Assembly (NCBI GenBank): GCA_965202655.1
Contig: CBDBBK010000001.1
Span: forward strand, 1,461,627-1,525,626
Length of the DNA stretch: 64,000 nt
From: Vicinamibacterales bacterium
Lineage (GTDB): Bacteria; Acidobacteriota; Vicinamibacteria; Vicinamibacterales; UBA8438
Direction of reading: 5' to 3'
Part shown: one piece after another, positions 1 through 21,896 of the stretch
Layout of the letters: every line of letters begins with the position of its first letter
Position numbering within the stretch: the stretch's first letter is position 1
The notes under the pieces: generated by a model
What the model was told of the DNA's origin: nothing
The model's database searches: none
Seen by the model: only the letters and a program-made list of their open reading frames with translations
Position numbers and translations under genes: made by a program

Positions 1-1427
1 CGGACGATCATCGAGACGGCGGCGTTCTTGCCCGTGACGTAGAGCAGCCCGGTGCGCGGGCTGAATGCGGGCGAGCCGAAGCTGGATCCGCCGTGGGCGA
101 CGATCAGGTGCTCCTCGATGGAGTACGGCGTGTACATCTGCCGCGACCGCGACTGCTGCTCCGGATCGTCGAGATGCACGTACGTCGCACAGAACGGCGT
201 CATCGGCACGCCGCGCGCGTTGTGCGGAATCGGCTGGGTCGGATAGACCACCTCGCCCGGCACGTTCGTCTCGGTCGGCACCCGTGTCTCCACCATCGGG
301 TTGATGGGCTCGCCGGTCTCGCGGTTCCAGAGATAGAGGAGGCAGTTCTTGCCGGCTGACCCGACTCCCCGGACCGTCTCGCCGTCGCGCGTGACGTCGA
401 AGAGCACCGGCCCGGTGACGTGGTCCCAATCCCACAGGTCGTGATGAATCGCCTGGTAGTACCAGCGAAGCGCCCCCGTCTCCAGATCGAGAGCGACGGT
501 GGCGTTGGTGAACAGGTTTGCGCCGGGGCGCGCCGATCCGTCGTAGTCGGGTGACGGGTTGCCGGTGTTGAAGTAGATGAGCCCGAGGTCAAGGTCGATG
601 GCGGGCTGCGTCCAGACCCCGCCGCCGGCCCGCTGGCCGTCGCCCCACGTGTCCCGCGCGATCTCCCAGCCGTCGTCCTGCGGCCGCTGCGGAATCGTGT
701 TGAAGACCCACTTGATGGCCCCGGTCGCGGCGTCGGTCGCAATCACCAGGCCACCCGGGATGTGCCCCTCCGATAGCGCGGCCCCGACGTAGAGCGTGCC
801 GTCGTGGTACGCCGGCGCGGCCGTGATCCGATAGCCGAGCTCGTGCGGATCCAGAGTCGGCGGATAGACGTCCGGATACTTGGCCTGCAACGCCAGGCCG
901 ACGACCGGGAGAACGCCGCCGTCGCCGTACGACTCCACGAGCTCGCCGGTCTTCGCGTCCGCCGCGACGAGGTTCGGGCCGTTGTACGAGTAGATCTTGC
1001 CCTCCGCGTACGTCGGCCCCCGGACGCGGTTGGTACGTGCCTCGTTCAGCTCCAGGCTCCACACCTCGCCCCCGGTGACGGCATTGATGGCGATCACACG
1101 CGGGCCTGCATGCAGGTACATCAGGCCGTCGATCACCAGCGGCGTCACCTGGGCGACATCGATCCCCGCCGCCACGTCGTACGACCAGCGTTCGGACAAC
1201 CGGCCGATCGTTTCCGTGTTGATCTCGTCGAGTTCCGAATAGCGGCTGTTGTCGAGGTCGAGGTTATGGCTCGTCCAGTTGGTCTGGCCGCCCGCGGTGA
1301 TGTTCGGCAGCGCGCCCTGCCGGGTGGTCCGTCCCTGTTGCGCCGCCGCCGGCGAGCCGGCGACCACGGCAACCGCCGTCAGAACGACCATGAGCCCTCG
1401 GGTCCGCACGCTGCTGGATGAAGTCAT
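1..1427 (-). CDS. PQQ-dependent dehydrogenase (quinoprotein), 3' end cut by window edge
   Basis: Absent from the ORF track because it runs off the left edge. My minus-strand translation from ATG 1427 gives MTSSSSVRTRGLMVVLTAVAVVAGSPAAAQQ (signal peptide), then VTPLVIDGLMYLH, GGVWTQPAIDLDLGLIYFNTGNPSPDY and ALDLETGALRWYYQAIHHDLWDWD. These are typical quinoprotein propeller motifs. Confidence 0.8.
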   Translation of the reverse strand, partial: MTSSSSVRTRGLMVVLTAVAVVAGSPAAAQQGRTTRQGALPNITAGGQTNWTSHNLDLDNSRYSELDEINTETIGRLSERWSYDVAAGIDVAQVTPLVIDGLMYLHAGPRVIAINAVTGGEVWSLELNEARTNRVRGPTYAEGKIYSYNGPNLVAADAKTGELVESYGDGGVLPVVGLALQAKYPDVYPPTLDPHELGYRITAAPAYHDGTLYVGAALSEGHIPGGLVIATDAATGAIKWVFNTIPQRPQDDGWEIARDTWGDGQRAGGGVWTQPAIDLDLGLIYFNTGNPSPDYDGSARPGANLFTNATVALDLETGALRWYYQAIHHDLWDWDHVTGPVLFDVTRDGETVRGVGSAGKNCLLYLWNRETGEPINPMVETRVPTETNVPGEVVYPTQPIPHNARGVPMTPFCATYVHLDDPEQQSRSRQMYTPYSIEEHLIVAHGGSSFGSPAFSPRTGLLYVTGKNAAVSMIV

Positions 1428-1472
1428 CTGTCGCTCCTTGCGCCAAACATAGTCGGCAACGAATGCGGTCAC

Positions 1473-9572: not shown

Positions 9573-12500
9573 TCACGGCAAGCCGCACCCGCGCCCCTTG
9601 TAGAGGCCGACGTTGTCGATCTGCACGTCCACGTCGCTCTGCGCCAGGGTGAAAGTGATCCTCGCGTTGAAGTCCGCTTCCGGACTGATGAATCGGTGCC
9701 GGAACGGGTGGAAGTCGCGCGTCAGGCTGGCTCCCGTGCCCCGGGTCGAGCCCCCGACGGACGGATCGATGGCGGTGCCCATCAGGCTGCGGTACTCCGT
9801 CGCACCGGTATCGACGTTGACCTGAATGTAGCGGAAGTCGTCAGCTCGGGCAGAGTAGCAAAGCGTATACTCCGCCCCTTCCTCGATGACGACATTGTGA
9901 GAGAGCTGCACACGCCACGGCCGGTCGACCGTGGGTGCGTCGATGGTGAAATCGGCCTCTCCGTTCCAGGTAACGGACGCGTTCGTGAGGTTCACCCGCC
10001 AGGAGCCCTGCGCGTCGAACCTGCCGCCGCTGGTGATGAGGTTCTCTGACTCGGCCCGCGGCGCCGCGTCGACCACGTGGAATGGCAGGTCGTTGCTGAA
10101 CAGGCCCTCGGGATTCTGCACCTGCAGCATGTGCAGTCCCGTCTCCGCCGGCAGCCGACCGAGTTCGACGATCACGGTGTCGTCCTCGCACGCCGGCAGG
10201 ACGCCTGCCTCGCAGGCGACCGAACCGGCGACGCGCCGTCCGTTGACGAGCACGTAGGCGCCCGGCTGAATGTACTCGCCCCGCAACCGCATCGGTCCGG
10301 CGGCGTGCAGCTCGGGAAACTCCGCGGGGCGCCCGCCGTTGAACCTCGGCATGACGGGCAGTTCGTGCGGGTACAGGGTGGGCTGCGGATGATCGTAGTC
10401 CGCCAGGCGACCGAGGCGTCCCGTGATGGTCAGCAGCAGCTCGCCCGCCGCGGCCAGCGCCGTCAACTCGCCGCGGGTGTAGGTGGCGCCATCGCCAAGC
10501 CGGCTGCGATAGGCGCCGCCCCCGAACTGCAGCGCCAGCGAAGTGCCGGCACCCGTGTCACGGAGCCGCAGGCCCTCCGCCTGCAGGACGATCCCGCCCT
10601 CCGAGGCCGACTGCTCCAGGGCGTCCAGCAGGTTCCGGGTGGCATCGAGGTTGGCCGTCTCCGGGTTCAGGGTCACCTGCCGTCCGAGCGCGCCGGAAAA
10701 GCCGACGCTTCCCTCCACGATCATCTGGAACATGTTGTTGTTGCTGATGAAAGAACTCCGCTCCGGGAAGCCCCGCGTATCGCCACCCACGAGGTCGGCA
10801 AAGAAGAAGCGATTCTGGGGGGACGTCTTCCACCGGTCGTTGGCGCCCCGCCACGACGGTACGTCCATGCCGCTGCCGCCCATGTTGGTCATCGTCCAGA
10901 AGGGCAGGCGGTGGCAGTTGGCGCACTGCTGTTCGGAGTGGAACAGGCGGACGCCTTCCATCGCCGTCGCCGACATCGTGTTGGTATAGGGCCGCTCTGG
11001 CGACGGCGGATAGGGCACGCTGAGCAGATACCTCGCCATGGCGGCCCGCTCGACCGCCGAGAGCCGTCCGGGCTTGCCCTCGTCGTTGGTCTCGCAGTCG
11101 GACTGGTCGCACATGGTGGTGCGCAGGGCGGTTTCCATGACGTGGAGCGTGCAGCTCTCCGGGACCTCCGGATCGCAGTTCGGCTCGACCGTGTTGTTGA
11201 TGCTGGAGGTGTTGATGCCGCCGAACGGGTCACCGAGGGTGCCGTCCCAGTGATACGGGGCGCTGCCGCGCAACCCGCGAATGTCCTGCACCAGGCGCGG
11301 CTGAATCTGATCGCAACCGACGTCGCACAACGGCGTATCCAGCACCCATATCAACTGATCGGTGTGCCCGTCCGGGTGGCAGCTCGCGCAGGCGAACGTC
11401 CCGGTGCTGGACGCCTCCGCGGTGTTGAAGGCGATCCGGCCCCGCTTCAGGTCGGGATCCGTCGGGTCATGCAGGGCGATGGTGACTTCCGGCCGCGGCG
11501 AGGCGCGATTCCGAAGATCGACCAGGGACACGCTGTTGTCCAGCGCGTTCAGCACCCATGCCCGGGCCGGCGCGCCGGCCGCGGTCGTCTCCAGAGCGAC
11601 GCCGCGCGGGCCTGAACCGACATCGGCCCGGCCCAGCACGGCTCCGGTCCCGGCATCCACCGTGAAGATCCGGCCGGATGCCGACGCCGTGACCACGAGG
11701 GTTGCGTCGTCGTCGCTGACGGCGATGGCGAAGGGCGTGGCCAGCGCCGCGCCGCGCGCCGGATGGGCGGGCGGCACCGGTTCGAGTTCGAACAACGTCG
11801 GTTCACCGCAACCGCCGTCACAGGGAACGCGGGTGATCCGGTTCAGGTACGGCCGGTTCTCCAGCTCGGCAAGGCCGTGGCCCTCGGTGCCCGCCTTGCC
11901 GTTCCTGTCGTTGCGGGCTTCGGTCTGGGCAATGAAAACCCGGCCTTGCGAATCGGCGGCGATCCCGTAGAGCAGGGTGCCCAGCGTGTCCACCACCTCG
12001 ACCAGACGGTCCGTCTCGGTGTCGAACACGAAGAGGTCACGATCCGGTATCCGGGGATGCCGAACCACATCCGCGACGTAGTTCAGGGACAGGGACTGCG
12101 CGTTGCTCGGTTCCGCCTCGGTCACGTGCTCGCGGGCGTCGAACGTGCAGAGCTCGCCGTCGATGTACCGCGGCCAGCAGCCCGAGAGTTGCGTCTGGTT
12201 GTTCGACTCGAACGGCACGACATAGAGCCGGTCGCCACTGACGGTCAGCGCCCGCGGATCCTGCGCGGTCAACTCGATCAGGTACGTCAGGCTGCGCGAC
12301 GGGACGTCGATGACCGCTACCTTGTTCGACGAGGACAGCGCGACGTACGCCTTGTCGTTGCTCGCGAACGCGATGCCGACCGGCTCGTCGAACCGGGTCC
12401 GGCCGGTGCTGTCATGCCGCTGGATGGTGGCCAGCACCTGGTGTCGCGTCGGGCTGGCCGGATCGGTATCGATCACGCTGACGGAATCGGAAACGTGGTT

Positions 12501-14210
12501 GGAAACCCACACCTCCCGTCCGTCGGGACGCACTGCGATCCCTACCGGATCAATGCCGACCGGGATGCGCGCAACGAGGGAACGCGTCGCCGTATCGATC
12601 ACGTCGACGGTGTCGGAGGGCGTGTTGACGGTGTAGAGGAGGGAGGCATCCGGAAGCAGGGCAATCGGATTCGAGTACGGGCTCTCGTAGTTGATGTAGC
12701 CCACTCCCGATACCTCCGGGTCGAAGCCCGTCTCCGTGGCCGCAGCAACACCCGTCGCGGTCGTGGCGGCGCCCACGCCCACCCGGATCTCGCTCGGCGG
12801 CGTTCCTGCTCCGCCCCGACTGCCGTCAGGATCGTCGAAAGCGACCGCATCGTTGCCAGCTCCAGCGGCGCGGCGTTCGTCCGCTCCAGGGTCCTCCTGC
12901 TCGCGCAGAGGCGGCAGACCGACGGCGTGCAGCGCCTGCTCGACGGCCCGCTGGACCACGGAACCGGCCTCCAGATCGTGCGCCGACTGCCGGATGGCTT
13001 CCGCCGCGAGCGGAAACGACGTCGCCGGGGGCATCAGCGCTTCCAGCGCGCGAAGGAAGATCGCCTCGATCCGGTCGCGATTCGCGAGGCCCGCTCCCTC
13101 CACCACCAGTCCCGTCGTGAGGTTCGTCCCGCCCTCGACGGCAAGGCGAAACGCGTGGCTCAGGATCGTCGCGTTCCATCGTCCCGCCCCATCGCAGCAA
13201 TCCCCCGGCGTGCCGGCGTACTGTCCGTCCAGAAACGCGACACCCGAGTAACGCCAGCGCGCGCCATCGGCAACGAGCACGAACTCCCGGCGTGAGGCGT
13301 AGGTGTCCGGACGTCCGTGGGCCGCCCACTGATGATCTGCCGGGACGAGACGAGAGGCGGGCCGGTTCCGGGCGACAGGCGTCGAGCCAATGTCGGCGTA
13401 GGCCTGACCCACCGCATCCCCCTGAGACGACGCCAGCACGAAGCGGCCGTCCTCGCACCAGGCGGGCATCGACTGCCAGGTCCCCTCCGCAGGGACCGGG
13501 AACGTCGCGTTGTCGCAGGTGTGGGTCTGGCCGTACTCGTCCGTGAACTGCCGCGGTCCGAGCCGCGCGCCAGCCGCGAAGTCCGTGACCGCCGCGTGCA
13601 CTCGCGCCGCAGCGGAGCCGGCGCCGTTGCCTCCCGCGGGATCCTGAGCGTCCTCGACGTGCACGATGCGGCCATTCACCGCGCCGGCGAAGAACCCGCG
13701 TCCGTCGCTCGCCACGATGCGGTACGTCAGGGCGTACGTGCCGTCCGGCAGCGGCAGAATGAGAAGCTGCACCGGTCGGTCCGGCGCCAGCGTCGCGCCG
13801 GTGGCGCGTGCGACCCGCGCCGCAACCTCGGCGCCGGTCAGCAGCGAGCCCGGCTCCGGGTTGATGCCCCGGTGAATCGAGCCGAGCATCGAAACCGTCA
13901 CGCCGCGATCGAGCTGCCGCACGATGCCGCCGCCATGCACCGGCAACCCGCCGACATGCTGGACGAGGCGCTCGTGCGTGCGGCCGTCCAGAACGGGGTC
14001 CGGGCGGTGCGACGCGACGCGCAGTTCGCCGGTGCGCGTCATGCGGTCGATCACCGCATCCCAGTGTCCCAGCTCGTCGGCGGTCGACGCGTAGCCTGCC
14101 GATACCTGCACGACGCCCGACGGGGGTTGGGTAGCGGTATTCCGGCCGGTGGCGAGGATTGCCACCCCCGCGATGGTCGACGCAACGACGAGACGCGGAA
14201 CTCGACCCAC
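9573..14210 (-). CDS. 1545-aa exported mosaic protein: M4-protease-like N-terminal region (no HExxH), YVTN-type beta-propeller, di-heme cytochrome c peroxidase/MauG-like domain, IPT-like domain, C-terminal CBM4_9-like domain
   Basis: - aa 60-190: FTP/PepSY-like.
- aa 345-415: ILSHAFRLAVEGG...IEAIFLRALEALMP, resembling the thermolysin C-terminal domain, but I find no HExxH in aa 1-450.
- aa 505-900: repeats such as LYTVNTPSDTVDVIDTATRSLVARIPVGIDPVGIAVRPDGREVWVSN.
- CASCH at aa 941-945 (nt 11376-11390) and GVRLFHSEQQCANCH at aa 1096-1100 (nt 10911-10925).
- aa 1390-1545: WNGEADFTIDAP...WRVQLSH...YTLCYSARAD. Confidence 0.75.
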   Translation of the reverse strand: MGRVPRLVVASTIAGVAILATGRNTATQPPSGVVQVSAGYASTADELGHWDAVIDRMTRTGELRVASHRPDPVLDGRTHERLVQHVGGLPVHGGGIVRQLDRGVTVSMLGSIHRGINPEPGSLLTGAEVAARVARATGATLAPDRPVQLLILPLPDGTYALTYRIVASDGRGFFAGAVNGRIVHVEDAQDPAGGNGAGSAAARVHAAVTDFAAGARLGPRQFTDEYGQTHTCDNATFPVPAEGTWQSMPAWCEDGRFVLASSQGDAVGQAYADIGSTPVARNRPASRLVPADHQWAAHGRPDTYASRREFVLVADGARWRYSGVAFLDGQYAGTPGDCCDGAGRWNATILSHAFRLAVEGGTNLTTGLVVEGAGLANRDRIEAIFLRALEALMPPATSFPLAAEAIRQSAHDLEAGSVVQRAVEQALHAVGLPPLREQEDPGADERRAAGAGNDAVAFDDPDGSRGGAGTPPSEIRVGVGAATTATGVAAATETGFDPEVSGVGYINYESPYSNPIALLPDASLLYTVNTPSDTVDVIDTATRSLVARIPVGIDPVGIAVRPDGREVWVSNHVSDSVSVIDTDPASPTRHQVLATIQRHDSTGRTRFDEPVGIAFASNDKAYVALSSSNKVAVIDVPSRSLTYLIELTAQDPRALTVSGDRLYVVPFESNNQTQLSGCWPRYIDGELCTFDAREHVTEAEPSNAQSLSLNYVADVVRHPRIPDRDLFVFDTETDRLVEVVDTLGTLLYGIAADSQGRVFIAQTEARNDRNGKAGTEGHGLAELENRPYLNRITRVPCDGGCGEPTLFELEPVPPAHPARGAALATPFAIAVSDDDATLVVTASASGRIFTVDAGTGAVLGRADVGSGPRGVALETTAAGAPARAWVLNALDNSVSLVDLRNRASPRPEVTIALHDPTDPDLKRGRIAFNTAEASSTGTFACASCHPDGHTDQLIWVLDTPLCDVGCDQIQPRLVQDIRGLRGSAPYHWDGTLGDPFGGINTSSINNTVEPNCDPEVPESCTLHVMETALRTTMCDQSDCETNDEGKPGRLSAVERAAMARYLLSVPYPPSPERPYTNTMSATAMEGVRLFHSEQQCANCHRLPFWTMTNMGGSGMDVPSWRGANDRWKTSPQNRFFFADLVGGDTRGFPERSSFISNNNMFQMIVEGSVGFSGALGRQVTLNPETANLDATRNLLDALEQSASEGGIVLQAEGLRLRDTGAGTSLALQFGGGAYRSRLGDGATYTRGELTALAAAGELLLTITGRLGRLADYDHPQPTLYPHELPVMPRFNGGRPAEFPELHAAGPMRLRGEYIQPGAYVLVNGRRVAGSVACEAGVLPACEDDTVIVELGRLPAETGLHMLQVQNPEGLFSNDLPFHVVDAAPRAESENLITSGGRFDAQGSWRVNLTNASVTWNGEADFTIDAPTVDRPWRVQLSHNVVIEEGAEYTLCYSARADDFRYIQVNVDTGATEYRSLMGTAIDPSVGGSTRGTGASLTRDFHPFRHRFISPEADFNARITFTLAQSDVDVQIDNVGLYKGRGCGLP

Positions 14211-14274: not shown

Positions 14275-15417
14275 TCAGGGACCCGCTTCGATCAGCTCCA
14301 GCGCCAGGCCGTCGAGATCCTCGATCAGCACGGCGCGCGTATCGCCGAACGCGTAGGGACCCTCGAGGATCGGCACCCCCCGGGACTCCAGGTGAGCAAG
14401 CACCGCATCGAGGTCCGGGTAGGCGATCCCCACACGGTCGACGACCTGGCCGCGGGACCGCGTCAACGGCACGTCCAGGTCCGGACCGCAGCGGCCGTCG
14501 CGACACTGACGCGTATACCAGGCCCAACCCGCGTTCTCGAGGCGGACGCTCGCTATCGGACGCCGGAGCTGCCCCATCGGCAGGAACGACGCGTAGCTGA
14601 CATCACCGATCGGGACGTCGCACGGGTCGTACAGCGGGCGCGGGGTCAGTTCGCCCGTGTCGGGGTTGCGTTGCGGCGGCAGGGTCATGCCCAGCGTCTC
14701 GACGTACCAGTTCGCGGCGCAGAGCGGCTGTTCGTGCCAGAAATGCGTATGGCCATAGAAGAGATCCTCGGTCTCCGCATTACCGTTGAACTCGACGAGA
14801 ATCCCGTCCGGATCGACCAGATAGCCGAAGTCCTGCCCGCTCCCCCGGTCGCGCGTCGGGTTCAGGCCCTCGCGTGCGCGCCGCTCCTCCATTTCCGCCA
14901 CCGTCAGCAGTTGATCCCCGAACGGCGCGAGGCCCGAGTGCGGGACGCCGACCGTATCGTCCGGCCCGGTGAAGACCGGCAGGAAACCGAAGCGTTCCCC
15001 GTCCGGGTCGAGCGCCGTCAACCGCTCGTACAGCGCCAGACCGTCCGTGCTCGGCCCGGTCGTCCAGAACGGACTCTGCGGAATCGATTGCCGCCGTTCC
15101 GGATCGAACGCCCCGGGCGCCTGCTCGTCCACCTGCGTATACAGCAGATAGATCCCGTCGGCCGCGAACGCCGGCATTCCCGCGAAAGTCGTCCGCTCGC
15201 CCGCCGGCCAGAACGTCGACCACCAGTCGAGGGCGCGTTCCGGATCGACCGAGTTGACATGGATATGGTGAAAGCTCGGCTGCGGTAGCGTCGCGGGAAC
15301 TGGCGAGCGCGTCTCCGACGGCGTCTGACCCGCCGCATCGCCCCCAGTACCCGTCGGCGCGCCGGCGCATCCCGCGGCGACGATGACGCCAAGCAGGGCG
15401 GCGAACTTCGCCTTCAC
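14275..15417 (-). CDS. VOC (glyoxalase/bleomycin-resistance/dioxygenase) family lipoprotein
   Basis: Lipobox LLGVIVAAGC. FHHIHVNSVDPERALDWW, GYLVDPDGILVEF and VDRVGIAYPDLDAVLAHLESRGVPILEGP...VLIEDLDGLALELIE. The GTG start overlaps the upstream stop (GTGA at 15414-15417). Confidence 0.65.
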   Translation of the reverse strand: MKAKFAALLGVIVAAGCAGAPTGTGGDAAGQTPSETRSPVPATLPQPSFHHIHVNSVDPERALDWWSTFWPAGERTTFAGMPAFAADGIYLLYTQVDEQAPGAFDPERRQSIPQSPFWTTGPSTDGLALYERLTALDPDGERFGFLPVFTGPDDTVGVPHSGLAPFGDQLLTVAEMEERRAREGLNPTRDRGSGQDFGYLVDPDGILVEFNGNAETEDLFYGHTHFWHEQPLCAANWYVETLGMTLPPQRNPDTGELTPRPLYDPCDVPIGDVSYASFLPMGQLRRPIASVRLENAGWAWYTRQCRDGRCGPDLDVPLTRSRGQVVDRVGIAYPDLDAVLAHLESRGVPILEGPYAFGDTRAVLIEDLDGLALELIEAGP

Positions 15418-16514
15418 TCGCCGATGATGGCGACGCCCCAGGGTCGCTCGCCGGCCGGGATGGTGCCGACGACCTGATTGGTCTCCGTGTCGACGACGCT
15501 GACGTCGTTGGACGGGCCGTTCGCGGTGTAGAGATAGCGGCCGTCGGGGGTGATGCCGATGCCCCAGGGTCGCTCGCCCACTTCGACGGTCGACAAGGGC
15601 TGCCAGGTGGCGGCGTCGATGGTGACGACGGTGCGCCCGCGGCCGGTGGTGACGTAGACGCGGGTGCCGTCGGGAGAGACGACGACACCCATCGGGCGGA
15701 CCAGATCACCCAGATCGGAAAGGTCGATGGTGTGGAGCACCTCGTGTGCCGCCGTGTCCACCACATGGACGGTGCCGCTGTTCTCGGCCGTTACATAGGC
15801 CCGGTTGCTGTCCGGGGAGAACGCGCTGGCCCGCGGGCGGGCGCCCACCTCGAACTGCGCGACCGCTTCGTTCGTCGCCGTGTCGATGGCGGTCACCTGA
15901 TTGTCCTCTTCCGAGGTGACATAGACGACGCTGCCGTCGGGGCTGATGCGGACGCCCTCGGGCTCGCCGCCGACCGGAATCTCGGCCAGGATCTCGCCGG
16001 TCGCGATGTCGACGACGCTCGCTATCCCGGCGTCCTCGTTGGCCACATACAGCCGGGCGCCGTCATTGCTCACCGCCATCTGCTCCGGGTCGGTGCCGGC
16101 GCGGACCATGTTCACCACCTCGCCGGCCACGATGTCGACAACCCCGATGCCGTCGGCGGATCGGTCGGGGGGTGGGAGCGTGCTCTCGTCGGTGCCGGGC
16201 GGCGATGGGGGCGAGCCGCTCAGCGCGACAAACAGTTGGGTGCGGTCGGGCGACACCTTGATGCCGCGGGGCCGCTTGCCCAGTGGGATGGTGTTCACCA
16301 CCTCGTTCGTCCCACCGTTGATGACGGTCAGGTCACCGGCGTACTCGTTCGTGACATAGACGACGTACGGCGGTGCGGATGGCGCCTCGTCCATCGCCGC
16401 CGCGTCCTCGGCCGGGGCCTCGCCGCCGCCGCCGCACGCAATCGCGAACACCGCTACGAGCGCCGCCGCAGCGCCCATCCAACCGCGTGGCTCAACTGTA
16501 GTTGTCATCTTCAT
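15414..16514 (-). CDS. YVTN-family beta-propeller repeat lipoprotein
   Basis: Lipobox VFAIAC. Repeats include YVTNEYAGDLTVINGGTNEVVNTIPLGKRPRGIKVSPDRTQLFVA and LYVANEDAGIASVVDIATGEILAEIPVGGEPEGVRISPDGSVVYVT. Confidence 0.8.
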   Translation of the reverse strand: MKMTTTVEPRGWMGAAAALVAVFAIACGGGGEAPAEDAAAMDEAPSAPPYVVYVTNEYAGDLTVINGGTNEVVNTIPLGKRPRGIKVSPDRTQLFVALSGSPPSPPGTDESTLPPPDRSADGIGVVDIVAGEVVNMVRAGTDPEQMAVSNDGARLYVANEDAGIASVVDIATGEILAEIPVGGEPEGVRISPDGSVVYVTSEEDNQVTAIDTATNEAVAQFEVGARPRASAFSPDSNRAYVTAENSGTVHVVDTAAHEVLHTIDLSDLGDLVRPMGVVVSPDGTRVYVTTGRGRTVVTIDAATWQPLSTVEVGERPWGIGITPDGRYLYTANGPSNDVSVVDTETNQVVGTIPAGERPWGVAIIGE

Positions 16515-16587: not shown

Positions 16588-16628
16588 CAGAAAGACGAAG
16601 GGGACAGGCGCTAGTGGCGCCTGCCCCC
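16588..16628 (-). terminator. rho-independent terminator candidate downstream of the 746-aa gene
   Basis: Hairpin at 16600-16627 (GGGG-A-CAGGCGC / loop TAGTG / GCGCCTG-CCCC; 11 bp with a 1-nt bulge). On the minus strand it is followed by CTTCGTCTTTCTGG. Confidence 0.45.
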
Positions 16629-16659
16629 TCCGAACCGTTACGAACGAACCCGGCGCGCC

Positions 16660-18900
16660 CTATCTGGCGAGCGGGTCGGGCCGAAGCTGGAAGTGCACCA
16701 TCTTGCTCTTGGTGCCCTTGCCGCCTTCGGTGTGCCAGATGTAGTTGGAGCCGTAGTTGGCCCAGAGGCCGCGGCCCTTCCACCCGGCGTTCGGGTCGTC
16801 GATCCGGCCGTCGAGACCGCGGGAGTAGAACGCCATCGGGTACGGCACCCGCAGGATGGTCCACTCGCCGGTCTCCGGGTCGAGCGCCAACAGCGAATCG
16901 GACGACGATCCGTTCGCAATCGGCACGTTCTCCCCGAGGCCCAGGGTGTTGTACTGGTCGACCCAACTGTAGTAGTGGAAGTCGGCGCTACCCGGCGTGT
17001 CGACCCCTTCCATCTGCGGGCCCGGCACGGTGTAGAGCGTCCAACCCTCGGCGCACTGCTGCCCGGTCGCATCCGGACCGTTCATCGTCGTGCACTTCGT
17101 GCGGTCGAAGCTGGCCATCTGGCTGCTGCCGGAAAGCGCCGTCCAGATGACGCCGTTCCGGTCGACGTCGATCCCGCGCGGCGCGAAGCCGGTCTGGCTC
17201 GCGTCGACGTTCGGGTTCTCGACGGAGGGCGGCTCGTAGACCTCCGCGATGCAGGTCTCCGGCGGATTGTCGCCCCGGTCGAGGCGGACCAGCCGGCCCG
17301 GGAACGGCCCGGTGCGGGTGATCCAGATCGAATCGTCCGACGGGTGCGCGATGATGCCGTAACCGAAGCCGACGATCCGCGTGTCGAGGCTCGGGTCGAT
17401 CTCGACCTCGCCCCGGCGGTTCGGCTCGTTCCACGGCTTGGTGATCTTGCCGTCGCCGTTGGTGTCGATGACGGTCGGGCACCAGCCCTGCGAGAACTGC
17501 TCGTCACCCGTCTCGTCGTACAGCTTCGTGTCGATCCAGCCGATGGAGTTGCTGTCGCCGCTGAACCAGAGGGTGTCGTTCTCATCCTCGCCGAACTGCA
17601 GGTGGTGAGTCCCGAAGCAGGTGTCCACGAGGACGAAGTTCTCCGTCTCCGGGTCGTAGTACGACGCCTGCCGGCCGCTCTGGTTCAGCGGGAAGTACTC
17701 GGCGTACTTGTTGTCCGACCCTTCCCGGCACCAGTCGGGATTCGGGCGGGCGCGAACGGTCGACGTCATCCAGACGCGGCCGTCCTGGTCCATCATCGGG
17801 TTGTGCGGGTCGGACGAGTTCTCGTTGCCGTCCGGGCCGCCCCGGCCCCAGAGGAGCTGATCGCCCCAGTAGTACGACGGCTGGAGCTGCTCCTGCGGGA
17901 AGCGCGACGGGACCGAGTTCGGATCCGCCGGCCGCACCGGAATCGGCAGCTCGACGGCGGAGTTCTCGACCGGGTCGACGATCGTCAGGCTGCCGTGGCC
18001 CGCCGATACGCCGTAGACCGGCCCGCCGCCGTTGACGGTCGGGTTCCGCTTGTCGGTCGTGATCTCGTCGTGGATGAAGGAGCTGTCCGTCCCCCAGTCC
18101 CAGAGCGTGACCACGAGGTTCTGCTCCATGCCGTCCGGACGCGGCGGCCGCGGCGGCGTCTCGCCGGCGGCGATCCGGTCCGTCCAGTCCGCGAACATCT
18201 CGAGCGCGCGACCGCGGCCCATGCGGCTCATCGCCGCGCTCATCGCGGTGCCGCGCTGTCCCGTCTGCACCCGGTGATCCCAGGCGGCGACGGTCGAGTC
18301 GAAGTCGTCGACGTGCTGCACGACGCGGGTCGCCGTGTTGCCGAGCTGGTGACAGAGCTGGCAGCCCTGCTTCATCACGTCGAGCCAGTGCTGCTGCGTC
18401 CGCATGTTCTCGGCGATACCGTTCCCGTCCGGCCCGGTGCCCGGGAACTCGCTCGCCGGCGGCGGCTTGATGAGCGAGTACCAGTAGTTACCCGGGTAGT
18501 ACTGCGCCGCCGCCTGCTCGTTCGGCGCGATGACCGCTTCGAGCGTGACGTCGTCGCTGGAGGGTGACAGCTTCACCTTCTCCGAGTCGACCAGCCCGTA
18601 GCCGCGGACCCAGACGTCGTAGGTGGCGTCCGGCAACTGCGGCAGGACGAAGCGGCCGTCATCGGCGGTGACGACGATCTTGGCGAACCTCGTCTCCAGT
18701 TCTTCCGTCTCGGCGATGACCCAGACGCCTCCTTCCGGGCCGTTGCTGCTCTCGACGACACCGCTGATGTAGCCCTCGGCCATCTGCGCGGTCTCCTCGG
18801 CGGACGGCATCGCCCCGAAAAGGGCAATGGCGCCAACGAGGGCCACGCTGACGGCTCCGAGCCGCAGCGAGCGCCATGGCGTGTATGTGCGCGCGTTCAT
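16660..18900 (-). CDS. exported protein: carboxypeptidase-regulatory-like domain + single c-type heme site + large beta-propeller-like region
   Basis: Start moved to ATG 18900 (AGGAGG 6 nt upstream; MNARTYTPWRSLRLGAVSVALVGAIALFGA). YISGVVESSNGPEGGVWVIAE...DGRFVLPQLPDATYDVWVRGYG. CQLCHQLGN. Repeated segments such as GFAPRGIDVDRNGVIWTALSGS. Confidence 0.65.
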   Translation of the reverse strand: MNARTYTPWRSLRLGAVSVALVGAIALFGAMPSAEETAQMAEGYISGVVESSNGPEGGVWVIAETEELETRFAKIVVTADDGRFVLPQLPDATYDVWVRGYGLVDSEKVKLSPSSDDVTLEAVIAPNEQAAAQYYPGNYWYSLIKPPPASEFPGTGPDGNGIAENMRTQQHWLDVMKQGCQLCHQLGNTATRVVQHVDDFDSTVAAWDHRVQTGQRGTAMSAAMSRMGRGRALEMFADWTDRIAAGETPPRPPRPDGMEQNLVVTLWDWGTDSSFIHDEITTDKRNPTVNGGGPVYGVSAGHGSLTIVDPVENSAVELPIPVRPADPNSVPSRFPQEQLQPSYYWGDQLLWGRGGPDGNENSSDPHNPMMDQDGRVWMTSTVRARPNPDWCREGSDNKYAEYFPLNQSGRQASYYDPETENFVLVDTCFGTHHLQFGEDENDTLWFSGDSNSIGWIDTKLYDETGDEQFSQGWCPTVIDTNGDGKITKPWNEPNRRGEVEIDPSLDTRIVGFGYGIIAHPSDDSIWITRTGPFPGRLVRLDRGDNPPETCIAEVYEPPSVENPNVDASQTGFAPRGIDVDRNGVIWTALSGSSQMASFDRTKCTTMNGPDATGQQCAEGWTLYTVPGPQMEGVDTPGSADFHYYSWVDQYNTLGLGENVPIANGSSSDSLLALDPETGEWTILRVPYPMAFYSRGLDGRIDDPNAGWKGRGLWANYGSNYIWHTEGGKGTKSKMVHFQLRPDPLAR

Positions 18901-19062
18901 GTGTCTCCTCCTGAGTCCCCGTCCGTCCCGTAGCGTGTCGTTCGGTCTCTCGTAGCGTCTTCGTAAAAGCGTATTCGGCAAGGCGCGATTATGGATCGGT
19001 TTCGGTCGATTGTCCCGTCCTGTTTATTCCTCCGTGATCGCCCCGGTGATCTTCCCGGCCGC

Positions 19063-20541
19063 CTACTGCTCCTGCTGCTCCGCCAGCGCCAGCCGTTCAG
19101 CCGGGGAAAGATCCTCCGGCCGCCGGGTTCCGGCGGCGGGGTCGGCGCCCAGGTCGAGCAGCAGCTCCACCAGCGCCGGATGCCGGTTGAACGTGTTGGG
19201 ATAGAAAACACCCTGGGCAACAGAGAGGGCCGACCAGCCCTTCTCGTTCACGGCGTCGATGTTCGCCCCTTTCTCCACCAGGAAGCGGACGATGTTGTCC
19301 GCGCCGCGGTGGATCGCGCCGTGAAGCGCCGCGTCGCCGTTCACGTCGACGGCGTTCACGTCGTTCCCCAGCTCCCAGGCCAGCTCGACGGCCGCAAGGG
19401 CTTCCTCGTTGGTGCCGGGGTTCTCGCCGATCTTCCAGATGCCCACGCCGGCCGCCGCCATCAGCGGCGTCGCACCCTCCTCGGTGGTGATGGACGGGTC
19501 GGCGCCGAGGTCGACCAGCAACTGCATCATCTCGATGTCGGCCACCTTCGCCGCCTGCAGGAACGCCGTCGAGCCAATCCGGTTCAGCACGTTGCGGTTG
19601 CCGTCGCGCGGCTCCTGCGTCTGGCGCGCGTCCAGATCGGCTCCCGCCGCGGCGAGCGCGCGCACCATGTCAAAGGCGTCGAGATCGCCCAGCGGCACCG
19701 GAAACGGAGGATTCCGGCCCAGGTTCGGACGGCGGGTCCAGACCACCTGATGGAGGGCGGTCCAGCCGTTCCCGGCCGCGTTCGGATCGGCGCCCTCGTC
19801 GAGCAGCGCCTCGGCGAAGTCGTACTGCGCGTTGTAGACGGCGAGCACGAGGGCGCTCATGCCCCGCTCGGGCAGAACGTCGTCGACGTCTGCGCCGGCG
19901 CGCACGAGCGGGGCAAGCACATCCACATGGCCTTCGCGCGCCGCGAAGAGCACCGGTGTGAAGCCCCGTGCGGAGCGGGCAGTCGGGTCCGCGCCCGCGT
20001 CGAGCAGCCGTTCGACCGACGCGACCTGGTTCTGCGCCGCCGCCCACATCAACGCGGTCTGGCCGCGCCACTCCTCGACCGCATCGACCCCGGCGCCATG
20101 CGCCAGCAGGGCGTCGATGGCCTCGCCGTTCCCGGTCCGCGCCGCGGTCATCAGCGGCGTCTCCCCTTCCGGGTTGGCGCGGTTCGGGTCGGCCCCCGCT
20201 TCGAGCAGGCGGGTGATCATCGGGGTGCTCCCGTTGAGCGAGGCGAGCGCGAGCGGCGTGACGCCGTAGCGGTTCGTCGCGTCGACCGCCGAACCGGCAT
20301 CGAGCAGCAGTTGTGCGATGGCGAGATGGTCGTGGTGAGCCGCCCAGTGAAGCGCGGTCGTTCCGTCCGCCTCCGCCGCGCCGGCCACAACGCCGTCCGC
20401 CAGCAGACTCCGCACCGCCTCCGCGTCACCCGCCTTGACCGCGTCGACGAGCGGCGCATCGACCGCGCGCGCCGCAACGGCGGCGGGCGCCGAAGCCAGC
20501 GCGAGAGCGAGAACGACGAGGGCGGCGGCCGCGTTGCGCAT
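19063..20541 (-). CDS. exported ankyrin-repeat protein (triad copy A)
   Basis: Signal peptide MRNAAAALVVLALALASAPAAVA. More than 10 ANK-like repeats (DGTTALHWAAHHDHLAIAQLLLDAGSAVDATNRYGVTPLALA...). The start shares one base with the DUF1552 stop. Confidence 0.85.
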   Translation of the reverse strand: MRNAAAALVVLALALASAPAAVAARAVDAPLVDAVKAGDAEAVRSLLADGVVAGAAEADGTTALHWAAHHDHLAIAQLLLDAGSAVDATNRYGVTPLALASLNGSTPMITRLLEAGADPNRANPEGETPLMTAARTGNGEAIDALLAHGAGVDAVEEWRGQTALMWAAAQNQVASVERLLDAGADPTARSARGFTPVLFAAREGHVDVLAPLVRAGADVDDVLPERGMSALVLAVYNAQYDFAEALLDEGADPNAAGNGWTALHQVVWTRRPNLGRNPPFPVPLGDLDAFDMVRALAAAGADLDARQTQEPRDGNRNVLNRIGSTAFLQAAKVADIEMMQLLVDLGADPSITTEEGATPLMAAAGVGIWKIGENPGTNEEALAAVELAWELGNDVNAVDVNGDAALHGAIHRGADNIVRFLVEKGANIDAVNEKGWSALSVAQGVFYPNTFNRHPALVELLLDLGADPAAGTRRPEDLSPAERLALAEQQEQ

Positions 20542-21896
20542 CAGACGCTCGCGAGCGTTTCCATCGGCAGGCGGCCAGTGCTGTCGCCCAGGTCGTCCAC
20601 GGGGACTCCCGCCTTGTCGAGCATGCTGACGAGCAGGTTGGTCATCGGGGTCTCGCCCTCGTACTTCAGGTGGCGGCCGCCCTTGAGGGTGCCGGCGCCG
20701 CCTCCCGCGAGGATCAGCGGCAGGTCCAGGTGCGAGTGCTGGTCGCCGTCGCTGATGCCGCCGCCGTAGAGGATCATCGACTGATCGAGCAGTGTGCCGT
20801 CACCGTCCGGCGTCGCCGCCAGCTTCTCGAGGAAGCCGGCGAGCAGGCCCACCTGGTAGGTGTTGATCATGGCGTATTTCTCGAGCCGCTCGGCGTCCAT
20901 CTGGTGATGCGACATCGCGTGATGCGGATCGGGCACGCCGATCTCCGGGAAGCTCTGGGCGGTCTGCTCCCGGCCGATCAGGAAGGTGAAGACCCGCGTG
21001 ATGTCGGCCTGGAAGGCCAGTGCCTGCAGGTCGAACATCAGCCTCGCGTGTTCGTCGAACGACTCCGGAATGCCGACCGGCCGCTCGAGGACTTCCGGCA
21101 GGGCGGCGTCCGACTGCGCTTCGGCGCGCGAGATGCGGCGTTCGATTTCCCGCACCGCCTCCAGGTACTGGGTGACGCGGGACCGATCCGCGGCGCCGAG
21201 GCTGCGGTCGAGCCGCACCATGTCCTCCCGCACCGCGTCGAGGATGCTCCGGTCGTCCTGAAGCCGGGCGACGCGCTGCTCCTCCGTGCCTCCCTCTCCG
21301 AACAGCCGTTCGAAGACGACGCGCGGATTGTGCTCCATCGGGAGCGGCGTCGTGGGCGTCCGCCACGAGAACGTATTGGTATAGACGCAGGAATAGCCGT
21401 TGTCGCAGTTCCCCACGACGTAGCTGTTCTCGAGAGCCAGCTCGAGCGACGGCAGCGGCGTGTCCTGGCCCAGCGTGGCGGCGGCGATCTGGTCCGCCGT
21501 CGTGCCCGCGCGGACGTCCGCGCCCTCGGTCCGCTTCGGGTGGACGCCGTTCAGCCAGACCGCGCTCGCCCGCGAGTGCTCGCCGTTCCCGTCACCCCAC
21601 GCCTCCGCCTGCCGGTGATCCAGACCCGTCGGGATGACGACCTGATCGCGGACGTTGGCGAGCGGCTGGAGGCTGCGCGACAACTCGAGCGCGCCGCCGT
21701 CGCCCGGCGGCGTCCACTCCGCCATGTTGGCGCCGTTCGGGATGTAGATGAAGCCGAGGCGCGGCGATCGCTTCGCGGCCGTGCGCGCCAGCGCGGTGCC
21801 GGCCGGCACCATCGCGTCGAGCAGCGGCAGCGCCAGCGTCGCGCCTACCCCGCGCAGGAAGGTCCGGCGGGGCAAGGACATCTTCTTGATGATCAT
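20541..21896 (-). CDS. DUF1552 domain protein with twin-arginine signal (triad copy A)
   Basis: MIIKKMSLPRRTFLRGVGATLALPLLDAM. GDGNGEHSRASAVWLNGVHP. ITRVFTFLIGRE. ATGA overlap with the upstream gene. Confidence 0.8.
   Translation of the reverse strand: MIIKKMSLPRRTFLRGVGATLALPLLDAMVPAGTALARTAAKRSPRLGFIYIPNGANMAEWTPPGDGGALELSRSLQPLANVRDQVVIPTGLDHRQAEAWGDGNGEHSRASAVWLNGVHPKRTEGADVRAGTTADQIAAATLGQDTPLPSLELALENSYVVGNCDNGYSCVYTNTFSWRTPTTPLPMEHNPRVVFERLFGEGGTEEQRVARLQDDRSILDAVREDMVRLDRSLGAADRSRVTQYLEAVREIERRISRAEAQSDAALPEVLERPVGIPESFDEHARLMFDLQALAFQADITRVFTFLIGREQTAQSFPEIGVPDPHHAMSHHQMDAERLEKYAMINTYQVGLLAGFLEKLAATPDGDGTLLDQSMILYGGGISDGDQHSHLDLPLILAGGGAGTLKGGRHLKYEGETPMTNLLVSMLDKAGVPVDDLGDSTGRLPMETLASV

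Follow-up and report, generated by a model that had tools for sequence, protein, structure and literature searches.

The gene considered here lies at positions 9573-14210, on the minus strand, of a 64,000-nucleotide stretch of the genome of a Vicinamibacterales bacterium of the phylum Acidobacteriota (assembly GCA_965202655.1, contig CBDBBK010000001.1). This whole stretch is called the window below and corresponds to C1:1461627-1525626 of the genome, G000. Results of our analysis suggest that the product of this gene is an exported, surface- or glycan-tethered redox enzyme with two haems, which would consume peroxide or another small oxidant and which carries a dead protease at its N-terminus. 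This is the reading of the sequence that we consider the most likely, with a probability of about 0.45. An initial annotation of the window, made from the letters alone, had proposed an exported mosaic in which a protease-like module, a beta-propeller, a two-haem peroxidase and a carbohydrate-binding module (CBM) are joined, and the exported combination of propeller, two-haem domain and CBM is supported by our results.

The gene, its conserved core and its exchangeable ends

The gene is a single unbroken frame of 1545 codons and a stop, starting with GTG, and its G+C content of ~0.69 is like that of the surroundings. The initial annotation had reported this frame with its strand unstated, and the motifs quoted there are all found in the translation (CASCH at aa 941, CANCH at aa 1096 and, in the N-terminal part, ILSHAFRLAVEGG and IFLRALEAL). 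Proteins of equal length and order of parts, P0002, P0003 and P0004, are encoded in independent assemblies and are 96%, 84% and 81% identical to the window protein, respectively; the source of P0004 is an acidobacterial metagenome-assembled genome at NCBI together with ENA and Logan contigs. Since similarly built orthologues occur in independent assemblies and the window genome (4.16 Mb, 94.6%-complete) is in three contigs, an assembly chimera is very unlikely, and the open reading frame (ORF) is a real gene.

Attachment of c-type haem needs export to the periplasm. Together with the hydrophobic N-terminal segment of the protein, this leads us to infer that the protein is exported; no lipobox Cys was found in aa 1-34 of the translation. 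The parts of the gene are given below, where relevant with the ratio of nonsynonymous to synonymous substitution rates (dN/dS; here and below rough, single-pair estimates) and the confidence values (pLDDT) of AlphaFold models.

9573..14210, minus strand: the complete gene of 1545 codons and a stop, which starts with GTG and has orthologues of 96/84/81% identity in independent assemblies
14109..14210, minus strand: aa 1-34, basic N-terminus followed by a hydrophobic stretch, LVVASTIAGVAILA, read from the translation as a Sec signal or signal anchor
13641..14108, minus strand: aa 35-190, M4 propeptide-like region with an FTP motif (62-111) and a PepSY-like part
13596..13640, minus strand: aa 191-205, scar of a deletion with its junction near aa 199/200 (nt 13613/13614; alignment A1)
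12906..13595, minus strand: aa 206-435, remnant of an M4 catalytic domain with a family-specific Cys-containing insert and a C-terminal helical lobe
12711..12905, minus strand: aa 436-500, low-complexity linker rich in Ala, Gly and Asp, poorly conserved in A1 (dN/dS 0.80; pLDDT < 35)
11511..12710, minus strand: aa 501-900, YVTN-type beta-propeller (dN/dS 0.10)
10641..11510, minus strand: aa 901-1190, two-haem domain (dN/dS 0.165) with CASCH at 941-945 (nt 11376-11390) and CANCH at 1096-1100 (nt 10911-10925)
11241-11252, minus strand: invariant H987-W988-D-G within the two-haem domain
10386..10640, minus strand: aa 1191-1275, small alpha/beta domain, a part of the conserved core (pLDDT > 90), spanned by the homology to the paralog encoded in the same genome
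10056..10385, minus strand: aa 1276-1385, all-beta Ig-like sandwich (predicted strands with pLDDT ~90-96)
9576..10055, minus strand: aa 1386-1545, beta-sandwich of predicted CBM4 fold, which is the family's variable C-terminal module

The core of the protein (aa ~490-1380) belongs to a large family that is unnamed and uncharacterised. About two thirds of the protein (aa ~490-1545) match more than 1400 proteins (>1429 matches), mostly of 1050-1150 aa, and an exhaustive search with aa 900-1545 gave 112 clusters (50% identity) at E <= 1e-30 and 292 at E <= 1e-10. At least 584 loci of the core family are present in species-representative genomes, which include those of Vicinamibacterales, Pseudomonadales (among them Ca. 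Azotimanducaceae and Halioglobus), Lysobacterales, Planctomycetota, Verrucomicrobiota and Armatimonadota. The earlier remark that no characterised example is known is fair in the case of the whole fusion, but the propeller and two-haem core is not unique to it. In the comparison of the window with locus L001, the dN/dS of the core is 0.10-0.17, and the strongly selected unit comprises the propeller, the haem domain and the two domains that follow.

Pfam searches of 40 diverse members detected CCP_MauG in 18 of them, CBM_4_9 in four, sulfatase in three, a pyrroloquinoline quinone (PQQ)-dependent glucose/sorbosone dehydrogenase (GSDH) in two, ankyrin in two and B_lectin in one. The sulfatase can stand at either end of the protein, and in one member ankyrin and sulfatase both follow the core. 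The genome of the window encodes a second member (L089:3557-7534, minus strand, the same as G000:C1:665556-669533), which is 53% identical to the window protein through aa 1378 and which contains, at the position of the CBM4 module, a complete GSDH (E 5e-71). The gene of this paralog divergently adjoins an ankyrin-repeat gene and a gene of DUF1592-type cytochrome. A fusion with GSDH is likewise present in protein P0118. As only the end modules are exchanged among members, the propeller, the two haems, the alpha/beta domain and the Ig-like domain can be regarded as the constant unit. The variable modules are mostly glycan-related (CBM4_9, sulfatase, PQQ sugar dehydrogenase, and B_lectin). The same core is joined to a CBM, a PQQ sugar dehydrogenase, a sulfatase or a protease, and the search for its substrate is therefore narrowed to extracellular glycans.

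The assignment of a ~400-aa beta-propeller in the initial annotation holds. YVTN repeats (TIGR02276) are recognised in four stretches with 79.5 bits at a cut-off of 27.85, and in the PDB the propeller matches 1l0q (E 2.2e-39) and the beta subunit of hydrazine synthase (E 1.6e-14). Several polar motifs of the propeller, namely, N571-H572-x-S574-D575, F667-E668-S669, P722-D723-R724-D725, and N785-R786, are kept family-wide (alignment A2).

The two haem sites that had been described as intact are confirmed as CxxCH motifs, separated by ~155 residues. Residues C941, C944, H945, R972, H987, W988, C1096, C1099, H1100, R1121, and D1125 are invariant or nearly so. Two c-type haem motifs in two domains with an intervening Trp are the features of the bacterial cytochrome c peroxidase (CCP)/MauG family (PF03150), and both are present here; Trp988 aligns with His144 of hydrazine synthase gamma, a site that is Trp in CCP and MauG, and it is via this residue that Trp988 was equated with the CCP/MauG Trp. 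When a profile of 17 diverse members (A5) was compared with the PDB, the best match was hydrazine synthase gamma (5c2v_C, E 8.9e-10), and CCPs followed with E 3e-4 and weaker. The earlier CCP/MauG-like call stands in respect of the superfamily plan and of the 18 of 40 relatives that match CCP_MauG at E <= 1e-3, some of them above the cut-off, but the window protein itself stays below it. In the distant members P0143, P0158, P0169, P0172, P0182, and P0191 (A5), the second haem motif is CX4-7CH and not CxxCH (e.g., CSRAGGVCH, CADNNAGCH, or CGDVGPGGCH), a spacing that is unusual for c-type haem attachment.

The part of the protein that follows was analysed with the use of an AlphaFold model of aa 900-1545 (pLDDT 80.7, and >90 in the tail). 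The alpha/beta domain (aa 1191-1275) has no match in Pfam. The next segment, called IPT-like before, is all-beta and ~100 aa long in the model, which is in agreement with a beta-sandwich, but its membership in the IPT family is unconfirmed: no Pfam family, IPT/TIG included, matches aa 1285-1390 at E <= 5, and the fold-search list for aa 900-1545 is occupied by CBM matches. In the case of the C-terminal module, the earlier CBM4_9-like call finds support in the predicted fold (Foldseek: 1gui, E 1.5e-9, TM 0.72, 21% identity; 1cx1, TM 0.75), in the match of the relatives' profile to 1gui (E 0.0057) and in relatives P0081, P0083, P0107, P0117, and P0124, which pass the cut-off of CBM_4_9 (PF02018), but not in the protein's own sequence, as aa 1385-1545 have no Pfam match to this family at E <= 5.

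The M4 protease remnant

The similarity of the N-terminal part of the protein to the propeptide and to the C-terminal helical domain of M4 proteases, noticed in the initial annotation, is confirmed by several kinds of comparison. The FTP motif (aa 62-111) scores 23.3 bits at the Pfam cut-off of 21, and Peptidase_M4_C (aa 345-431) scores 22.9 bits, slightly below the cut-off of 24.4. In a sequence search of the PDB, thermolysin chains align with aa 330-432 (E ~9e-4), and positions 77-448 of a profile built from 12 full-length relatives align with 5a3y, the thermolysin precursor (E 1.5e-17). The AlphaFold model of aa 1-480, which is usable for the propeptide and the C-lobe only (pLDDT 47, 12 sequences), retrieves with Foldseek the propeptide of vibriolysin MCP-02 (3nqy_A, E 4.6e-5, TM 0.57), and its C-lobe matches that of thermolysin over 94 columns with 36% identity and a root-mean-square deviation of 1.8 A. 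Both the FTP/PepSY propeptide and the C-terminal helical domain, by which homology to the M4 family is judged, are thus present.

Neither HExxH nor HxxEH occurs anywhere in the 1545 aa. At the position that corresponds to the junction aa 199/200, six HExxH-bearing relatives of 1364-1728 aa (P0005, P0006, P0007, P0009, P0011, and P0012) carry ~130-160 additional residues, which include VAHEL(M/T)HG (A1). Sister proteins that keep HELxH, with VAHELMHGV in this place, are 1689-1728 aa long. In P0007, the segment aligns residue by residue with HELTH, the zinc helix of bacillolysin and neutral protease. Both Pfam M4 domains are recognised in P0005, where Peptidase_M4 covers aa 228-318 and HELMH is at aa 311. 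The window protein lacks HExxH because these ~130-160 residues, that is, the catalytic N-lobe, are deleted. The position of the third zinc ligand is taken by Gln269 (nt 13404-13406), in the sequence GDAVGQAYADI vs. GGxVNEAYSDI or GEAFADI of the sisters; the GxxNEAxSD motif was equated with thermolysin Glu166 by reading, as the tool alignments do not span this segment. The position of the catalytic His (thermolysin His231), which is fixed by the alignment of GGDHWNS of P0007 to GGVHTNS of bacillolysin, is taken by Arg344 (nt 13179-13181; GAGRWNA vs. GGEHWNS of the sisters). As judged from these alignments, all three determinants of the protease are gone by deletion and substitution, and the module is catalytically dead. 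The loss of protease function suspected earlier is more complete than could be seen then, and no HxxEH variant was found in the protein either, the zinc helix itself being deleted.

A maximum-likelihood tree was constructed from the C-terminal 1040 residues and is, for this reason, independent of the M4 trait. A single clade of this tree holds every M4-bearing protein (SH-aLRT 95). Within it, P0005/P0006, which bear HExxH, form the sister group of the window clade, P0001-P0004 (support 100), while the other HExxH-less pair, P0008 and P0010, is placed elsewhere. The separation of the HExxH-less lineages on the tree and the slightly different borders of their deletions (A1) indicate that the N-lobe was deleted twice independently. 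The core-only protein P0017 (999 aa, L007) nests within the M4 clade beside P0008 and represents either a full loss of the module or a truncated gene call. Protein P0012 (1364 aa) contains HExxH and misses ~340 residues (the M4 end, the linker and the N-terminal half of the propeller); it comes from a single contig and possibly reflects a mis-assembly or a second kind of deletion.

The comparison of the window with L001 gives a dN/dS of 0.45 in the propeptide part and of 0.31 in the M4 remnant; for this module, values of 0.23-0.29 were obtained with L087/L088, a pair in which HExxH is present. The remnant is still constrained, less so than the core (0.31-0.45 vs. 0.10-0.17). M4-like modules were found in 124 of the 201 sampled genomes of the order to which the window genome belongs. 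Most of them are stand-alone frames of ~550-750 aa, for which the match to the query is split in two, as it would be with intact M4 enzymes; the contiguous, deleted and fused form was found in G000 and in just one further genome. G000 also contains an M4-like frame of 658 aa that stands alone (G000:C3:732123-733886, minus strand); it matches the propeptide and the C-lobe of the query separately, and it presumably encodes an intact protease of the gene type from which the fused module derives. Decapitated twice in a similar way, with the propeptide and the C-lobe retained, the M4 module provides a clean case of the origin of a pseudoenzyme by deletion.

Candidate functions and genomic surroundings

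If the protein acts as a tethered two-haem redox enzyme, the CANCH haem would take electrons from a soluble periplasmic or extracellular donor, and the electrons would pass via the invariant Trp988 to the CASCH haem. The latter may be regarded as the catalytic site, because no conserved distal ligand for it is apparent in the family alignment. A small oxidant, most likely H2O2, would be reduced there; alternatively, the propeller would hold a substrate with its conserved polar face, and this substrate would be oxidised with H2O2. Through the CBM4 module and the Ig-like spacer, this chemistry would take place on or next to a polysaccharide. The non-cleaving M4 remnant, which is less constrained, may have been retained for folding, as a spacer or for binding. 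The proposal of the initial annotation, oxidative chemistry directed at a polymer, is plausible, and the glycan-related accessory modules of the relatives support it indirectly.

Several observations weigh against this reading. To our knowledge, no member of the family has been characterised biochemically. With CCP_MauG, the whole protein scores 14.7 bits and the domain taken alone 20.3 bits, both below the cut-off of 25.6. The distal haem Gln/Glu context of CCPs is unrecognisable in the alignment after the Trp, and peroxide chemistry is for this reason a guess; the term peroxidase used earlier was an assumption, also because the haem domain is nearer to hydrazine synthase gamma (8.9e-10) than to CCPs (3e-4). 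Some members have Leu or Phe in place of Met1163, which is the likely sixth ligand of the electron-transfer haem, and the haem pockets are poorly modelled by AlphaFold (pLDDT 40-60), so the active-site geometry is unavailable from the model. The predicted CBM4 fold is no proof of sugar binding, and the dN/dS of the M4 remnant would fit slow decay equally well as a retained role. Finally, the family has no conserved operon partner: in a survey of neighbours, in which ORFs of >=120 aa from 80 genome loci representing 35 independent groups were clustered, no neighbour family was found in more than 6 of the 35 groups. The recurring neighbours are generic (luciferase-like monooxygenase, aminotransferase, ABC ATPase, SDR, TonB receptor, and PhyH).

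The closest surroundings of the gene in the window comprise the following features.

15414-16514, minus strand: YVTN propeller gene, 366 aa (TIGR03866, 'PQQ-dependent catabolism-associated beta-propeller', 267.5 bits, cut-off 287.3)
14275-15417, minus strand: VOC/glyoxalase-like gene, with a 4-nt overlap with the YVTN gene and a 64-nt gap to the target gene
16596-16632: terminator-like hairpin just upstream of the YVTN, VOC and target genes
20541-21896, minus strand: DUF1552 (HXXSHH) gene

The YVTN and VOC genes (14275..16514) probably form one transcription unit with the target gene. The order on the minus strand is DUF1592-type cytochrome, DUF1552, ankyrin, 773-aa protein, hairpin, YVTN, VOC, and target; it is the same in L001 and L002 and is not found beside P0008 or P0007. 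The gene of the 773-aa protein (16660-18981) was considered as that of an HZS_alpha-like partner and rejected, as its product has no match in the PDB or NCBIfam. Of the ~24 DUF1552 genes in G000, one lies 4-6 kb from each of the two core-family genes. For both genes together, this is a ~1-in-100 coincidence, assessed post hoc. The link to DUF1552, DUF1592 and ankyrin genes is confined to Vicinamibacterales-type loci and is a lead, not a finding.

The expansion of PQQ-dependent dehydrogenases in G000 is extraordinary (106 PF01011 matches, which represent ~75 separate genes in 4.16 Mb). Several of these genes lie in the window, where one is cut by the left end (3-1472, minus strand), and such genes are adjacent to or near the core-family gene in the window, L001, L003, L004, L087, and L088. 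They are common as neighbours in the loci of Vicinamibacterales. A PQQ dehydrogenase as a functional partner was nevertheless rejected, because the adjacency occurs in only 3 of the 35 independent groups and is at chance level in a genome with ~75 such genes, in which an estimated ~36% of positions lie within 10 kb of one of them.

An unlikely but serious alternative is that the core acts as a built-in cytochrome that collects electrons from PQQ sugar or alcohol dehydrogenases, with the CBM holding it on the polysaccharide being oxidised, by analogy with the cytochrome domains of quinohaemoproteins and of fungal pyranose and cellobiose dehydrogenases. Such a role would be in line with the fusion of the propeller and two haems to GSDH in the paralog from the same genome, in P0118 and in two of the 40 diverse members, with the abundance of PQQ dehydrogenase genes, and with the upstream YVTN gene, which is close to the family of propellers associated with PQQ catabolism. 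It is argued in a 2026 preprint that electrons pass from six-bladed PQQ enzymes to adjacent or fused cytochromes. However, besides the chance-level adjacency of PQQ dehydrogenase genes, the fusions with sulfatase and CBM need no electron sink, and a mere carrier would need neither a 400-aa propeller at dN/dS 0.10 nor an inter-haem Trp of the CCP type.

It is rather improbable that the core represents a new class of extracytoplasmic glycan-acting haem enzymes. Peroxide-driven modification or cleavage of (sulfated) polysaccharides would be one possibility for their activity, and the core would be retargeted by swapping the CBM4, sulfatase, PQQ sugar dehydrogenase and lectin modules, with the twice-decapitated M4 module kept as an intramolecular chaperone or a substrate clamp. 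In such a case, lytic polysaccharide monooxygenases and the two-haem rubber oxygenase RoxA would be functional parallels.

A protein-modifying activity like that of MauG or MbnH, in which high-valent haems formed with H2O2 or O2 would oxidise the protein's own propeller or the YVTN or VOC proteins to produce a cofactor or a cross-link, is improbable. The inter-haem Trp is conserved as in MauG, MbnH-type models and the di-haem enzyme 6e1c are matched weakly, and the YVTN and VOC genes appear to be co-transcribed with the target. In methylamine and quinohaemoprotein amine dehydrogenases, to which the matches are weak, such chemistry is paired with seven-bladed propellers. Against this activity, the YVTN and VOC partners are kept in the closest clade only, no partner is conserved across the 35 locus groups, the Tyr ligand of MauG is not identifiable, and the matches to the relevant families are far under the cut-offs.

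We consider as very improbable a nitrogen-oxide chemistry similar to that of hydrazine synthase gamma, such as the reduction of nitric oxide to hydroxylamine at the N-terminal haem or a detoxification akin to it at this site. Among solved structures, the haem domain has its best relative in hydrazine synthase gamma (E 8.9e-10 vs. 3e-4 for CCPs), the propeller matches hydrazine synthase beta, and the layout, with beta and gamma fused, is that of Scalindua and of the homologues from non-anammox bacteria reported by Hagglund et al. (2025, Genome Biol Evol, PMC12758564). Still, the scores are far under the cut-offs (52.6 vs. 1250 bits for the model of the beta-gamma fusion), the position of gamma-His144 is occupied by Trp, a search of the 94.6%-complete genome revealed no HZS_alpha homologue, and the accessory modules indicate glycans rather than nitrogen.

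It is hardly credible that the N-terminal module has remained a protease by means of a metal site that escaped recognition, or that the ORF is an artefact of assembly or annotation: the remnant is under some purifying selection (dN/dS 0.31-0.45), but it has no HExxH or HxxEH, its zinc-binding helix is deleted, the equivalents of Glu166 and His231 are substituted, and the deleted form is present in four independent assemblies and in a second, independently deleted lineage, the genome itself being in three contigs.

Comparison with known systems

The core family is large, strongly conserved and present in marine and soil heterotrophs, and its position is between CCP/MauG and hydrazine synthase gamma. 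The closest systems described so far are the distant fused beta-gamma homologues of hydrazine synthase and the CCP/MauG superfamily. Judged by sequence, the window protein fails the thresholds of both the hydrazine synthase and the CCP/MauG families and shares with them the plan of the haem domain. No major concept is altered by these results unless the chemistry of the core proves new, and the family is a good candidate for biochemical study.

Hydrazine synthase beta/gamma (5c2v) and its fused homologues (PMC12758564) are like the window protein in that a two-haem CCP-like domain follows a seven-bladed propeller of the YVTN type in one chain. The non-anammox homologues described there also have, like the window protein, Trp at the position of gamma-His144. 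The relationship is very distant, and the differences concern the NCBIfam scores of hydrazine synthase models, which are for the window protein 52.6 vs. 1250 bits (fusion), 71.8 vs. 560 bits (beta), and 24.6 vs. 625 bits (gamma), the lack of an alpha homologue in the genome and the lack of additional c554-type haem modules in the protein. The alpha/beta domain, the Ig-like domain, the CBM4 tail and the M4 remnant, which the window protein adds to the beta-gamma layout, are not described in the parts of that article that were consulted.

With CCP, MauG, MbnH, and BthA (PF03150), the window protein shares two CxxCH motifs, the inter-haem Trp, the periplasmic or exported location and the helix context GR.aFnda..S..g..sCasCH. 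It differs from them in its score under the Pfam cut-off, in the sequence after the Trp, which is unlike the distal pocket, and in the Met ligand, which is not universal in the family. It is also fused to a propeller and to glycan-related modules.

The FTP/PepSY-type propeptide and the C-terminal helical lobe are shared with M4 proteases, such as thermolysin (5a3y) and vibriolysin MCP-02 (3nqy). While HExxH, the Glu ligand and the His are all retained in the sister proteins P0005, P0007, P0009, and P0011, they are lost from the window protein, which has an insert of ~50 aa with conserved Cys residues that separates the Glu motif from the place of the deleted zinc helix. The usual tails of M4 proteases are PPC or PKD domains, whereas the module of the window protein precedes a redox protein of ~1050 aa.

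Cellobiose dehydrogenase and the Coprinopsis pyranose dehydrogenase of AA8-AA12-CBM1 architecture provide an analogy only, in the way of working, as they are secreted and combine a haem domain with a sugar dehydrogenase and a CBM, much as the family studied here combines its haem core with a PQQ sugar dehydrogenase (in the paralog) or a CBM. The haem domains are not homologous (the b-type AA8 in the fungal enzymes vs. the c-type domain with two haems), and the CBM is of a different family. Moreover, in the genome studied here the PQQ domain and the CBM are alternatives at one position in two paralogs and do not occur together in a single chain.

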